A DNA stretch of 21,405 nucleotides from Caldisericaceae bacterium. Its GTDB lineage: Bacteria > Caldisericota > Caldisericia > Caldisericales > Caldisericaceae. The notes beneath the pieces were generated by a model that was given only the letters and a program-made list of their open reading frames with translations, did not search any database and was not told the DNA's origin. Within the stretch, counting starts at the first letter, position 1. Each line of letters begins with the position of its first letter. The translations under genes were made by a program, and so were the position numbers. Positions 3 through 21,254 of the stretch are shown piece after piece. The stretch covers positions 1 to 21,405 of the forward strand of contig JBMFRX010000019.1 in the NCBI GenBank assembly GCA_049967855.1, given 5' to 3'.

Positions 3-1328
3 AAGCCCTTTGCCGCATTTGTGATGAAGATAAATTCCACAAGCTTCTCAGTAGATAATTTGCCCAGGCAATTTGCGAATAAATCCGTGTATCCTGTTGG
101 CGTAAACGGCAATGTATTTGTTCCGCTGAGGGATGTTATCAACGAAGCTGGCGGAGATATTTCTTGGAGCGGCAAAGACCGCTCGGTGACGTTCTCCATA
201 AACGGAGTGAAACTCTCTTTTGTAGTTGGAAGCAAATCTTATTCGTTTAATGGAGCAACTGTCGATTTTCCTGCAAACGGCTCTGCGAAGCCTTTTATTG
301 TTAAAGGATCTACGCTTTTTCCACTTGATGTGTTAACTTCCAATTTTGGAGAATCTGCAAGCGCAAATTCGTCAGACAGCTTAAAATTCAATATTTATAA
401 ACAGCTTGTTCAGACGTCAGATGCAACGGGAAGGAAGTTCTATGTACCAAAGAGAATCAACAAAATAGTTTCTCTCTATCCTATGTCAACGCAGTTGTTG
501 TTTCCTCTTAATGCAGAAGATGCTCTTGTTGCAAGCCCTAAAGGTGCAGTGATAAATTTCGACAATTTTGCAAAGGTTTTTCCAAAGGCAAAAGAGCTTC
601 CAAGCGCTTCTGATTTTAAAAACCCAAATGTTGAAACAATTCTATCGTTTGCGCCCGACCTTGTTATAACTACATATTCCACACCAGTGAATAAGCTTGA
701 AGATGCTGGTATCCCTGTTGCCTTGCTCAACCAGGAGTCATTCCAGGGAATGCTAAACTCAATTCAGTTTCTCGGGAACATACTCAATAGAACAAGCGAG
801 GCCTTCAAAGCCCTCGTTTATATAAACCAGGAGATTTCCTCTATTCAAAGCAAGACTAAACCGATGGTTAACAAGCCAAGCGTCTATTTTGCAGGTTCAA
901 GTGTATTGCAAACTTTCGGAAAAGATATGATACAGAATTCTCTTGTGGCGCTTGCTGGAGGAACAAGCGTTTCCAGAGATGTTGTTGGAGGAAAGGTAAA
1001 TGTTTCTTATGAGCAAATTCTTGCGTGGAACCCTGATTTCATAGTTTTGGCGCCTTATTGCAACAGCAAGGTTAGCGATGTTCTGTCAAATCAGAGTTTG
1101 CAATCGGTGAAGGCAGTAAAAAATAAGAATGTAATAATGATGCCTGCCTTTATACTTTCCTACGATGTGCCTGCCCCAGAGTCAGTGCTTGGTGTTATGT
1201 GGATGGCTAATAAATTTTACCCTGGTTCACTGAATTTCAATATCGACGATGAGGCAAAAAGTTTTTACAAGAATATCTACTCATACAAATTGACTGAAAG
1301 CGACCTTGAAATAATTCTTGGGCAGTGA
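3..1328 (+). CDS. ABC transporter substrate-binding protein (class III, BtuF/FhuD/MolA-like) fused to an N-terminal copper amine oxidase-N (stalk) domain; probably 5'-truncated by the window
   Basis: The frame is open from position 3 with no stop before the GTG at 21. The N-terminal part has stalk-domain motifs (NGNVFVPLRDVINEAGGDISW; PFIVKGSTLFPL). The C-terminal part has periplasmic binding protein motifs (TDATGR..VPKRINKIVSL; NPNVETILSFAPDLVI; VSYEQILAWNPDFI; VKAVKNKNV). It is followed by an ATPase and a permease. Confidence 0.85.
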   Translation, partial: KPFAAFVMKINSTSFSVDNLPRQFANKSVYPVGVNGNVFVPLRDVINEAGGDISWSGKDRSVTFSINGVKLSFVVGSKSYSFNGATVDFPANGSAKPFIVKGSTLFPLDVLTSNFGESASANSSDSLKFNIYKQLVQTSDATGRKFYVPKRINKIVSLYPMSTQLLFPLNAEDALVASPKGAVINFDNFAKVFPKAKELPSASDFKNPNVETILSFAPDLVITTYSTPVNKLEDAGIPVALLNQESFQGMLNSIQFLGNILNRTSEAFKALVYINQEISSIQSKTKPMVNKPSVYFAGSSVLQTFGKDMIQNSLVALAGGTSVSRDVVGGKVNVSYEQILAWNPDFIVLAPYCNSKVSDVLSNQSLQSVKAVKNKNVIMMPAFILSYDVPAPESVLGVMWMANKFYPGSLNFNIDDEAKSFYKNIYSYKLTESDLEIILGQ

Positions 1329-8645: not shown

Positions 8646-9863
8646 TTAGCCTTCGGTATAAATTTCCTTTTCTTTTGGACTCTCTTTCCCAAAGATTGCA
8701 AAGAACAATGTCCCCGCAATGCCAAATGCAAACGCAGTCATAAAATTCACTTTTGGGCTGATGTTCCACAGGAATCCTGCAGAGAAAGCTGCCATTGACA
8801 CAATAACATCACGAATCAGATAGTAAGTGCCGAATGTTGATGCTTTTGCATCGTGCGGCGCAAGGTCGAGGATTAGGGATTTACGCGTAGGTTCTCCAAA
8901 TTCTTTTAATCCTCTTATGATAAAAGCAAAAACGAGCATTTCAAAAGTCCTTGAGTAGTAGATGAACAGGGGAAATATTGTAAAAAAGCAGAAAGTTATA
9001 ACAACAAATTGTTTTTTCCCGTACCTATCGGCAAGGAAAGCAATGGGGATGTACACAGTCATCGCTGTTAGCATTTCAATACCTGTAAGAACGCCAAATT
9101 GAAGGGCGCTAAAATGGAGATTGTTGACGACCCAAATTACGACAAATGCATAAGGGATCTGTTCTGCAAATCTTATGAGGATGTCAGAGACGAGCAACAA
9201 CCTGAGGTCTGGATTTATTCCAGAAAAAGATTCCTTTATGGTCATTCCTTTACCCTTGATTGCAGGGTCATCTGCCATATATTTTCTTATAAAGAAAATG
9301 GACATCAAGCCAAGTAGAAGCGCGCATGCAAATGCAATTTTAACTCCAATGACTTTTCCATACACTCCTATCAAGACTCCGCCAAGGATAGGTCCAAGCC
9401 CCATAGGGATTCTTCTTACAAGGGAATGCAGCGAGACGCCCATTGTTTGTTTTTCTTTCTTTACAGATTTTGAAACAAGGCTCATTATAGCGGGGAGCGA
9501 TATCGCAGTCCAGGAAATAAAAAATACTGCACCTACAAGCACTGCTTTCCATCCAGGGAAGATTATTACAATGAGATACCCTATCATTGCCATCACAATG
9601 AAAGCAATTAGTGATTTCTTGTAGCCGATTCTGTCGCTCAGGTAGCCTCCAGGAAAAGAATAAATGGCACTCAGGAGGTTGTCCATTCCGTTCAAGAGCG
9701 CAACAAACACCGACGAGCCGCCAAGGGCAACGATATAAAGAGGCAGGAATCTTTCTGCCATCTTTTCACCCAGGCCTAAGAATATCACCATAGTAAGCAT
9801 AGTGACCATTGTTCTATTTAAGCCCAGGAAGTCTGTTATATGCTTTATTGGGTTTCTTTTCAT
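8646..9863 (-). CDS. Major facilitator superfamily transporter
   Basis: 405 aa with about 12 hydrophobic segments; motif A-like GYLSDRIGYKK and FLADRYGKK in the two halves. Confidence 0.9.
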   Translation of the reverse strand: MKRNPIKHITDFLGLNRTMVTMLTMVIFLGLGEKMAERFLPLYIVALGGSSVFVALLNGMDNLLSAIYSFPGGYLSDRIGYKKSLIAFIVMAMIGYLIVIIFPGWKAVLVGAVFFISWTAISLPAIMSLVSKSVKKEKQTMGVSLHSLVRRIPMGLGPILGGVLIGVYGKVIGVKIAFACALLLGLMSIFFIRKYMADDPAIKGKGMTIKESFSGINPDLRLLLVSDILIRFAEQIPYAFVVIWVVNNLHFSALQFGVLTGIEMLTAMTVYIPIAFLADRYGKKQFVVITFCFFTIFPLFIYYSRTFEMLVFAFIIRGLKEFGEPTRKSLILDLAPHDAKASTFGTYYLIRDVIVSMAAFSAGFLWNISPKVNFMTAFAFGIAGTLFFAIFGKESPKEKEIYTEG

Positions 9864-9879: not shown

Positions 9880-10320
9880 TCATTTAGCTTTTTCTTTTGC
9901 TAATTGCAATTTTAGGAACGCATAAAGCGCATCGTAAACTAAGAATTGATTTTCAAGATTTTCGTAATCGTTAGGTATCATCACGGAAAAACCAGAAGCA
10001 ATTGCCTCAAGTCCTGGCGCATAAGGATTTTCATCGAGCTTGCCTGTGTCTGCAGCGTTTACGACATCAGCAATTTTATGAAGCACAGGATCTTTCAATC
10101 CGTATTTCTCGATAATCGTTACAAAACTGCAATGCCCGTCTCTGTGCCCCAGTTCTACGCCCTCTGCGTCAAACGGAATCGCATCCATTTTCTCTGCCGT
10201 GTTTATTACCATTGTTGGTGCTACAAATAAGAACTCTGCATCTGAATCAATGAATCTTGAGATAAGCCATGGACAGGCAACCCTATCCACGTGAACGTGA
10301 GCTCTTGTAACCCATTTCAC
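9880..10320 (-). CDS. Stand-alone chromate-resistance ChrB C-terminal domain protein (ChrF-like)
   Basis: MKWVTR..VHVDRVACPWLI.RFID.DAEFLFV, AIPFD, H..GHCSF, IADVV.AAD, GLEAI, YDALY. GTG start after AAGGAGG. Confidence 0.85.
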   Translation of the reverse strand: MKWVTRAHVHVDRVACPWLISRFIDSDAEFLFVAPTMVINTAEKMDAIPFDAEGVELGHRDGHCSFVTIIEKYGLKDPVLHKIADVVNAADTGKLDENPYAPGLEAIASGFSVMIPNDYENLENQFLVYDALYAFLKLQLAKEKAK

Positions 10321-10349: not shown

Positions 10350-11276
10350 TTAATTGTCTTCTCTTTTTTTGCGTTCTTTCGGATCAATATGGGCAGTAAC
10401 GTTGTAAGCTTGAGCTGCCTCTTTTACTTTGTCTTCGACGTTTGTTGCTATTTCATGAGCCTCATCAACTGAAAGATCATCATTCACCTCAACGTGAAGC
10501 GAGATGATTTTGTTTGTAAGATAATCGTGCACATATACATCGTGCAGGCCAATGACACCTGGAACAGAAAGAGCAGCTTCTCCGATTTTCTCAACCAACT
10601 CAGCATCTGGAGCTTCACCAATGAGAAGATTGGATGAAGAAAGAGTGAGTTCAACTGCCACCCATCCTATTAGCGCTGCAACGAAAAGTGCAAGTATTCC
10701 ATCTACAAAGTAAAGGTTGAACTTCATAAAAATAAGACCGATTGCTACAAGCGCTGAGGCAATTGCATCGCTTCTATGGTGCCAGGCATCTGCGATTAGT
10801 GCCCCTGAGTTAATCTTTTTGCCAAGAAAGATTGAAAAGCCTGCCATCCATTCTTTGAAACCAGCAGAGGCAAACATAAATATTACTGCAATGTAATTGA
10901 ATTCAACTTTTTGTGGGTGCAGTAGTCGGGTGACTGCGTCTCTCCCAACCTCGTAAGCTACGATGAACAGAAGGAAGGCGATTATAAGAGTTGCTATTAT
11001 TTCGATTCTGCCATGACCAAAAGGATGTTCCTTGTCGGGAGGCTTCTCTCCAAGCTTAAAGCCGACAATAACCACTGCAGATGTCAATACATCCGAAAGA
11101 GAATGAAATGCATCTGCAATGAGCGAAAGAGAATTAATTGCAAGCCCAAGAAGCAGCTTTCCAATGAATAGAGCAAAGTTTCCGAAAATACTCACCCACG
11201 CCTCAAGATAACCTATCGACTGTCTTGAGCGCTCTTTCTTAAAATAGTTTTTTAATAGCCAGGCATTGAAACCCAT
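10350..11276 (-). CDS. Cation diffusion facilitator (CzcD/FieF family) metal exporter
   Basis: SLIADAFHSLSD (TM2 HxxxD), PPDKEHPFGHGR, LIADAWHHRSD (TM5 HxxxD), and a C-terminal dimerisation domain (LHVEV, EAHEIA, AHIDP). Confidence 0.93.
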   Translation of the reverse strand: MGFNAWLLKNYFKKERSRQSIGYLEAWVSIFGNFALFIGKLLLGLAINSLSLIADAFHSLSDVLTSAVVIVGFKLGEKPPDKEHPFGHGRIEIIATLIIAFLLFIVAYEVGRDAVTRLLHPQKVEFNYIAVIFMFASAGFKEWMAGFSIFLGKKINSGALIADAWHHRSDAIASALVAIGLIFMKFNLYFVDGILALFVAALIGWVAVELTLSSSNLLIGEAPDAELVEKIGEAALSVPGVIGLHDVYVHDYLTNKIISLHVEVNDDLSVDEAHEIATNVEDKVKEAAQAYNVTAHIDPKERKKREDN

Positions 11277-11300
11277 TTTTAATCCTCCGTTTAAGTTTTT

Positions 11301-11363
11301 TGAAAGTCCTGCAGTTAGGTGTCTGCTGCTCTCTGAGCCCGGCGAATTCTGCCTGTTCTTTCA
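11301..11363 (-). ncRNA. NiCo (czcD) metal-sensing riboswitch, compact form
   Basis: RNA reads UGAAAG-AACA-GGC AGAAUUC GCC-GG-GCUC AGA GAGC-A-GCAG ACACCUAA CUGC-AGGA-CUUUCA. This forms a four-helix junction with the NiCo-like conserved blocks GAxCAGGC, GCCGGGC, GCAGCAG and CUGCAGGAC. It sits in the 5' UTR of a CDF gene, the canonical context. Confidence 0.85.
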
Positions 11364-11371
11364 GTATAAAG

Positions 11372-11399
11372 ATTATATCAGAATTTTGTCGTAAGGCAA
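11372..11399 (-). promoter_or_regulatory. Predicted promoter of the riboswitch-CDF operon
   Basis: Minus strand TTGCCT (11399-11394), 16-bp spacer, TGA-TATAAT (11377-11372); predicted start near 11365, just before P1. Confidence 0.7.
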
Positions 11400-11407
11400 A
11401 TGTATAT

Positions 11408-11433
11408 AAAAAGCCCGAGGAAGCCTCGGGCTT
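11408..11433 (-). terminator. Rho-independent terminator after the carbohydrate ABC permeases
   Basis: Perfect 10-bp inverted repeat AAGCCCGAGG-CTT-CCTCGGGCTT followed by TTTATAT on the minus strand. Confidence 0.85.
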
Positions 11434-20427: not shown

Positions 20428-21034
20428 TACTTGCCGAATTTGCCCTTAAAACCTTTTTATGCCTTGTTTTCTTTCCGTTGTTCCAATCAATTTCAATAGA
20501 ATCATCGTAAATTGCTATTCTCTGAATGACTATATTCCACAGTCTTTTTCGTTCTTCCCGGTTTGTATAAGGATAGATTTATTCAATCTGTTTAAAGTAT
20601 TGAGTAACATTTTGACTCTGCACAGTTTTTTTCTGTTGGTGTAATAGCTCAATCTTTTCCTTTTGTAATTGCTCAATCTTTTTCCTTATCTTATCCTTTG
20701 GTAAAGTCTCTATATCTAAATCTAAAACTTTTTCTATCTTTGAGTCTATCCGTTTTATTTCTTTTTCTATATTAACCTCTCTTGTCTGTTCAGATATCGA
20801 TGTATCAAAAATATGCCCGATATTTTCCAAGAGTAAACTTTCAAGAAAATCCTCATCTATTTTTCGATAACAGTGTATACCTTCAGTAACAAGTGGCACA
20901 CATTTATAAAAGTATTTTATTGTCTTATTTTTCCTAGCATAAAATGAATAGTTATGTTTGCAGTAAGGGCAGTAGATCAACTTCTGGAAAATAGCAATAT
21001 GCTTTGTTGGTCTCTGTCCTTTTTTGTATTTTTT
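20428..21034. mobile_element. Remnant of an integrative element inserted at the 3' end of tRNA-Leu
   Basis: An integrase remnant directly abuts the tRNA 3' end and the sequence is visibly more AT-rich after 20428. The right boundary is not determined. Confidence 0.65.
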
Positions 21035-21254
21035 CTGCACCGAAATTTTCACTAACAAATCTTATGGGCACTAGCGTCCTTCCCTTAATAATTTGTGGTG
21101 GAACATCCAAACTAACAGGTACTCCATCAACATATGCTGTGCTGTTACCAATCTGTATAGTCACTAAGACTTTGTCAGATTCACCACTAGTTCCAGGAAT
21201 GCAAAGCAATGAAACAAACAAAAGAACTAATACCAACGAAAAAACTTTTCTCAT
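20952..21254 (-). pseudogene. Truncated secreted stalk (copper amine oxidase-N) domain protein, broken at about 21033 where it joins the recombinase remnant
   Basis: AAGGAGG RBS, signal peptide, then VTIQIGNSTAYVDG..LDVPPQIIKGRTLVPIRFVSENFGAE. Similarity to the intact domain near 14300-14600 ends abruptly, and the remaining residues are the out-of-frame recombinase sequence. Confidence 0.75.

Follow-up and report, generated by a model that had tools for sequence, protein, structure and literature searches.

The closest described relatives of the RNA considered here are the NiCo/czcD riboswitches (RF02683), known from a structure of the Eba copy (4RUM) and from the Eba, Lmo and Cce copies treated in PMC9389577. 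According to bioRxiv 2025.08.02.668262, whose position numbering for the metal sites is followed here, the selective metal sites are A9, G40-G42, G82 and G83, and P4 is closed by a sheared G81-A56 pair that is said to aid folding. In known copies the P4/P1 3′ strand forms a terminator, as described by the same source and as found in 15/15 of our controls, and the NiCo/czcD copies in the literature consulted act through terminators. The Lmo riboswitch is reported to bind metal, and Fe(II) has been argued to be the likely cellular ligand of the class (PMC9389577); selectivity for Fe versus Co/Ni has been called unsettled (PMC11672702). For control of translation, two other systems are informative. 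In the V. vulnificus add adenine riboswitch, a translational ON switch, the 3′ strand of P1 is described as pairing, in the ligand-free state, with the SD/AUG region (PMC5847336). In the E. coli thiM TPP riboswitch, the first eight codons are reported to be part of the repressing structure (PMC11571811), and thus involvement of the coding region has a precedent.

The locus lies on the minus strand of the window, that is, the whole stretch of 21,405 nt that was analysed. It contains a gene for a CDF metal exporter of 308 aa (10350..11276) with Cation_efflux and ZT_dimer domains, whose product matches TIGR01297 with 232 bits (cut-off 82), the best models below their cut-offs being MamM, MamB and FieF. 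Its start codon is preceded, 7 nt upstream, by the Shine-Dalgarno sequence GGAGG (11284..11288) and, further upstream, by a compact NiCo/czcD four-way junction (P1-P4, 11301..11363), recognised through an Rfam match, folding and homologues. A sigma70-type promoter (11372..11399; TTGCCT, 16 nt, extended -10 TG-n-TATAAT, 10/12 consensus) would place the transcript start at about 11365, the 5′ end of the aptamer, and homologues carry a comparable -35/-10 pair immediately upstream of theirs. Beyond the promoter, a terminator-like hairpin with a 10-pair stem and a T run (11411..11433) lies at the end of an upstream sugar ABC permease operon, from which, judging by its sequence, it would insulate the CDF promoter. 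A stand-alone gene for a ChrB C-terminal domain (9880..10320), 30 nt downstream of the CDF gene, is probably co-transcribed with it, and the MFS transporter gene that follows (8646..9863) is probably the third gene of the operon. The order CDF-ChrB_C-MFS recurs in L002, from a congener, and in L003, and in no others among the loci inspected. The host had been suspected to lie outside the Firmicutes, which agrees with the labels of the nearest named CDF relatives, Caldiserica/Caldisericota and next Dictyoglomota/Dictyoglomaceae. Near the contig end there is also a recombinase zinc-ribbon fragment (20579-21058, minus strand), possibly a mobile-element remnant.

The initial annotation had described the leader as a four-way junction with very short helices, and all four were recovered at the positions it gave on the minus strand: P1, UGAAAG 11363-11358 with CUUUCA 11306-11301, spanning 63 nt in total; P2, GGC 11353-11351 with GCC 11343-11341; P3, GCUC 11338-11335 with GAGC 11331-11328; and P4, GCAG 11326-11323 with CUGC 11314-11311. 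This junction is the minimum-free-energy fold of 11370-11270 (-17.4 kcal/mol; z = -0.66), a folding energy that by itself is not above chance, so that the z-score is uninformative. When the Rfam NiCo model was run, as had been suggested, on a 1.7-kb search space, it matched 11370-11302 over its full length (27.5 bits, E 0.0017), although the score stays below the gathering threshold of 37; the scan of the whole host genome with the same model missed the aptamer and was likewise silent on the controls. Two homologues exceed the Rfam cut-off (L077 with 37.6 bits and L230 with 43.1), 6 of the 14 aptamer-bearing loci scanned give any NiCo match at E <= 0.5, and the shortfall in score tracks the short P2 and P4.

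The equivalents of the selective metal sites are intact at this locus (A9 at 11357, G40-G42 at 11340-11338, G82-G83 at 11309-11308), and all six bases are invariant in the 20 representative homologues, 8 of which were first found by a pattern containing them. At position 10 the base is A (11356), which the metal-binding Lmo copy also has. The equivalent of G81 is A (11310) here and in all 17 terminator-less representatives, a base that the metagenome search pattern demanded, while G is found in the three terminator-type representatives (L210, L223 and L230), in Eba, Lmo and Cce, and in 15/15 Clostridia-class controls. G81A removes the sheared G-A pair, and with this change the ligand may differ from that of the class. 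From its sequence and homologues, the aptamer is real, a compact NiCo/czcD four-way junction that shares with the class the core motifs, the six metal-binding bases, the location upstream of a CDF exporter and a predicted ON logic. It differs in its core of 53 nt (55-113 in the 15 NiCo controls), its 3-bp P2, the A at G81 and the lack of a terminator. With the Rfam cut-off not reached and G81 replaced, we file it as a variant working like NiCo/czcD, with putative metal binding. It had also been called minimal; compact it is, but the word overstates the case, as homologues measure about 60 nt and two of the 15 controls, the Clostridia-class L247 and L253, have cores of 55-56 nt, with U at position 10, terminators and scores above the Rfam cut-off. 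The aptamer class is thus already known, and compact copies of it are not rare.

The aptamer was found upstream of 26 of the 35 CDF orthologues examined, in three phylum-level groups, the remaining 9 being aptamer-less. By protein search, close orthologues occur in 6 of 93 genomes of the host's own phylum, and 4 of these have the aptamer. In the phylum of G041, 7/7 genomes carry such an orthologue, always with the aptamer, and in the Dictyoglomaceae-like phylum of G188 10 of 11 do, the aptamer being present in 3. No credible aptamer was seen in six further orthologues (38-41% identity, from another family of the host's class) or in 11 CDFs of greater distance, all of which were kept out of the 9 aptamer-less rows because they are too distant. 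A pattern scan of metagenomes gave 12 matches, all of them upstream of the same CDF gene. Among the 93 own-phylum genomes, our model R1 gave 4 strong matches, all at known loci, and among 101 relatives of G041 it gave 7 strong matches plus L200/L210. The weaker R1 matches that were inspected were rejected, both in the own phylum (6, and 2 more, lying in coding sequence or lacking the core) and among the G041 relatives (8). In a pattern scan of genome contigs, with 4 of 64 parts covered, a single match (L077) out of 119 had the 3′ core motif, and the others were taken as chance.

Removal of the near-identical L153, L154, L158, L159, L160 and L161 from the 26 leaves the 20 representatives used below. 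Among these, 95% of the cells of the junction are paired, and at 7 pairs both sides change; only 0-1 of 500 shuffles scored as high on four of five measures. The two-sided changes fall in P1, P3 and P4, whereas P2 shows only one-sided ones. As 13 of the 26 loci were first found by aptamer patterns, conservation of the core is inflated; the coding target described below was in no pattern. The protein tree requires 4 changes of aptamer state, at least 3 of them on well-supported branches. In the congener L002, P4 is largely unpaired and the predicted OFF bias amounts to 17 kcal/mol; that copy may be a decaying switch.

As the initial annotation had noted, no hairpin followed by a U tract stands between the aptamer and the start codon. 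More generally, an intrinsic terminator overlapping the aptamer is absent in 17 of the 20 representatives, this locus included. In the other three, the Dictyoglomaceae-like L210, L223 and L230, a hairpin with a trailing U run uses the 3′ strand of P1 as its 5′ arm; in the Clostridia-class controls, by contrast, the terminator uses the 3′ strand of P4. A candidate partner for the aptamer was found within the gene itself. The predicted anti-aptamer, UGCCUGGC (11258..11265, minus strand; +12..+19), comprises the third base of Asn4, Ala5, Trp6 and the first base of Leu7, and its (U)GCCUGGC is complementary to both P2 strands and to the metal-binding G40-G42. The invariant GCC-U-GGC (+13..+19) is palindromic and may therefore pair in two registers, with CAGGCR (register A) or with (AA)GCCGGGC (register B). 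At this locus the switching strand of register A would be CAGGCA (J1/2 and the 5′ strand of P2, 11350..11355), forming 6 bp with UGCCUG, and that of register B would be GCCGGGC (the 3′ strand of P2, G40-G42 and the first P3 pair, 11337..11343), forming 7 bp with GCCUGGC; register B reaches 9-13 bp in 18/20 homologues. The 3′ strand of P2 had indeed been proposed as the switching strand, a role that these models preserve with the coding region as its partner.

Several observations point to this target being kept for pairing. GCC-UGG is present in 26/26 aptamer-bearing and 0/9 aptamer-less orthologues, and the middle residue of the N-x-W motif varies freely in the latter. The third base of the Ala codon is C in 20/20 representatives, the sole invariant among 37 four-fold columns, while GCC makes up 14% of Ala codons, and of the 870 ORFs of this genome 12 carry GCCTG within their first 30 nt. 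At the sixth pair of register A, 11 representatives have A-U, 4 G-C and 2 G-U, and 3 are unpaired, which ranks it first among 39 comparable T/C columns. In register B 98.9% of cells pair, with one two-sided change, at this locus. Pairing between the NiCo copy and codons 2-10 reaches -12 kcal/mol in 20/20 representatives and in 0/15 of the Clostridia-class controls, the well-parsed remainder of 23 loci after 6 that were unparsed and 2 that were mis-parsed had been left out.

As Caldisericum and Dictyoglomus in culture are thermophilic, folding was also carried out at 60 °C, a temperature from which that of the host itself may differ; all folding energies ignore metal. By partition-function folding, the two registers together exceed a probability of 0.5 in 17/20 representatives at 37 °C and 19/20 at 60 °C. 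Enforcing the aptamer makes the region from the SD to +15 more than 1 kcal/mol cheaper to open in 14/20 (37 °C) and 18/20 (60 °C); here the cost would fall from 8.6 to 5.2 and from 5.4 to 1.8 at the two temperatures, respectively. An in silico synonymous change of GCC to GCA at this locus lowers the OFF bias from 6.6 to 3.5. In E. coli, the 30S footprint extends to 13 nt past the start codon, and structure within these 13 nt represses translation (PMC5435973). By this measure the ORF helix would reach into no more than the final 4-5 nt of the footprint, and it would also enclose the SD and the AUG.

From partition-function folding and codon conservation, the ligand-free RNA is predicted to adopt a fold that covers the ribosome site and cannot coexist with the aptamer. 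We lean, with some reserve, towards a metal-ON translational switch whose anti-aptamer is formed by codons 4-7 of the gene itself, an arrangement that appears to be retained in related genes of three bacterial groups. That the switch would turn translation on had already been suggested, and this is likely. In this model, the junction would fold first, during transcription. Without metal, the emerging +12..+19 would capture a P2 strand, initially through register A (CAGGCA:UGCCUG) and subsequently through register B (GCCGGGC:GCCUGGC), which would bury the metal-binding G40-G42 and so destroy the aptamer. The resulting OFF helix would close the SD and AUG in a long-range loop and overlap the 3′ edge of the 30S footprint, and the freed 3′ strand of P1 might additionally pair with the SD. 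Metal (judging from the class, a transition metal in divalent form; Co/Ni or, as the most plausible choice for an anaerobe, Fe(II)) would instead lock the junction, leave the region from the SD to +15 free and allow the exporter to be made, with Rho termination of untranslated mRNA as a possible secondary effect. The predicted switching strands would thus be those of P2, with a partner in the ORF, plus the 3′ strand of P1, unlike in the terminator-forming copies. In the add riboswitch, which has another aptamer and ligand, the partner is described as lying at the SD/start codon, not in codons 4-7 (PMC5847336). The thiM element is reported to be an OFF switch whose codons belong to a sequestering stem-loop downstream of the aptamer (PMC11571811), whereas the codons here have the ligand-binding core itself as their predicted partner.

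Some results do not favour a role of the coding region. Comparison of aptamer-bearing and aptamer-less genes for the presence of the target comes down to 3 independent pairs (sign test, p 0.25), and that for the covarying base to 2-3 concordant independent pairs (p 0.25-1), neither of which is significant. The demands of the protein could explain why Trp6 and most of Ala5 are kept. Two of the 9 aptamer-less genes (L224 and L005) keep register-B complementarity of -17 and -15 kcal/mol by means of a GCU codon. No intact register B is shorter than that of this locus (7 bp), where 9% of synonymous recodings pair equally well. When 60 or 90 nt of the ORF are co-folded, registers A and B fall to a total of about 0.6 and about 0.3 at 37 °C, with no fall at 60 °C, and L168, L170 and L171 show little pairing with the coding sequence at 37 °C. 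Moreover, the terminator-bearing L210, L223 and L230 also keep the target, where a translation helix looks redundant. Simultaneous formation of both registers as a pseudoknot was considered and ruled out by reasoning, since some homologues leave no linker.

Among other explanations, the most conventional is that pairing of the 3′ strand of P1 (CUUYC) with the SD constitutes the whole platform, the complementarity of the coding region being incidental or ancestral. This follows the logic reported for the add riboswitch (PMC5847336), and P1 is GGAAG/CUUCC-like in this CDF-leader family (CUUCC in most homologues), while Eba, Lmo, Cce and most controls have other P1 sequences. In its CUUCC form the strand is the stronger predicted anti-SD, and masking of the SD is predicted in many homologues, with a probability of 0.6-1.0 in 7/20 representatives at 37 °C, and it is the same strand that serves as a terminator arm in L210, L223 and L230. 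Here, however, CUUUCA is only a weak predicted anti-SD (-4.0 kcal/mol, P 0.24), as is its counterpart in the congener L002 (-1.9, P 0.02). In addition, before codons 4-6 emerge the aptamer fold is predicted to dominate even without metal, and the pairing leaves the invariant GCC codon unexplained. As a complete account of the switch we regard it as unlikely.

Slightly less probable still is that the same refolding acts on mRNA level, through Rho-dependent termination or decay, and not on initiation itself. Rho is above its family cut-off in 5/5 genomes tested, this one included, so that the measurable output could be mRNA level; E. coli translational riboswitches are reported to couple to Rho (PMC11571811), and two downstream genes are apparently co-transcribed. 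Against this, the helices predicted for the OFF state would themselves directly enclose the SD and AUG. A similarly doubtful proposal, which we place just below the preceding one, holds that the aptamer has changed its ligand or affinity (through G81A and the 3-bp P2), or that it is decaying and does not switch in this genome. The sub-threshold Rfam score, the replacement of G81, the loss of the aptamer at least 3-4 times within the CDF-leader family and the broken P4 of the congener speak for it, but the selective metal positions are invariant even with the search bias mentioned above, the aptamer helices covary, and the A at position 10 is shared with a copy that binds metal.

The initial annotation had instead placed the OFF state in a helix between AAUUCGCCG (11348-11340) and the SD-containing CGGAGGAUU (11289-11281). 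The 8 pairs out of 9 that it counted are indeed there, with -6.5 kcal/mol as an isolated duplex, but they do not exceed chance, since 15% of the dinucleotide-shuffled aptamers (295 of 2000) reach at least 8/9 against some SD-covering 9-mer. The expected conservation of this anti-SD in homologous leaders was not observed either, as the same register has 2-5 pairs out of 9 in the other 19 representatives and is absent where the P2 loop has 3 nt. Folding predicts the helix to dominate when the transcript ends at +12 (0.76 at 37 °C; 0.31 at 60 °C), and it can nest inside register A; once +21 has been transcribed its probability falls to 0.02-0.03, because register B uses the same bases. With codons 4-7 included, the SD is a partner of the P2 segment with a probability of 0.02 at this locus and no more than 0.09 in any of the other 19; that it is a conserved one is not supported. 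As the OFF state, this helix is thus very improbable, and it is predicted to be a passing intermediate in this genome only.

Returning to the preferred reading, in which codons 4-7 refold the aptamer, its wider form can be put forward only tentatively. According to it, an anti-aptamer lying within the codons of the regulated protein (GCC-U-GGC, codons 5-7) would invade either P2 strand and bury the metal-binding guanines, and thus selection would fix synonymous codons, which would be released where the aptamer was lost. The platform would, in addition, have changed on the same P1 strand within one exporter family, with a terminator plus the ORF helix in Dictyoglomaceae-like hosts (L210, L223 and L230, where control in two layers is possible) and, in Caldisericota-like hosts as well as in a third group, translation alone combined with a G81A aptamer. 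If true, the regulation would escape reporter fusions ending at the AUG, the switch would include the choice of N-terminal codons, and a change between control by terminator and control of translation would be recorded within one gene family. The translational platform can be tested cleanly by synonymous changes, and a natural aptamer of 60-65 nt, below the Rfam cut-off, is convenient for structure and sensor work. In the literature searched, no translational NiCo platform, ORF-embedded NiCo anti-aptamer or such hosts were found, although such hosts or platforms may already be recorded in the alignment of Furukawa et al. 2015 or in the supplement of PMC5473149. Searches for NiCo with Dictyoglomus and for Caldiserica with riboswitches found nothing, those on coding-region platforms found nothing on NiCo translation control among the papers listed, and the consulted part of PMC5473149 gives no platform detail.

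Some minor observations concern neighbouring loci. Shortly upstream of the NiCo aptamer of L157, on the strand opposite to the CDF gene, there is a match to the Moco/Wco riboswitch (746-871, plus strand; 47.9 bits). In the aptamer-less, Dictyoglomaceae-like L228 and L229, the stretch from promoter to SD holds a strong hairpin resembling a terminator (-18 and -17 kcal/mol, with a U run behind it) but no sensor that was recognised; the hairpin may be a relic or another control. Finally, in the aptamer-less CDF genes L005, L009 and L006-L008, about 10 nt or less separate a promoter-like sequence from the start codon and there is no SD, which suggests that their mRNAs are possibly leaderless.
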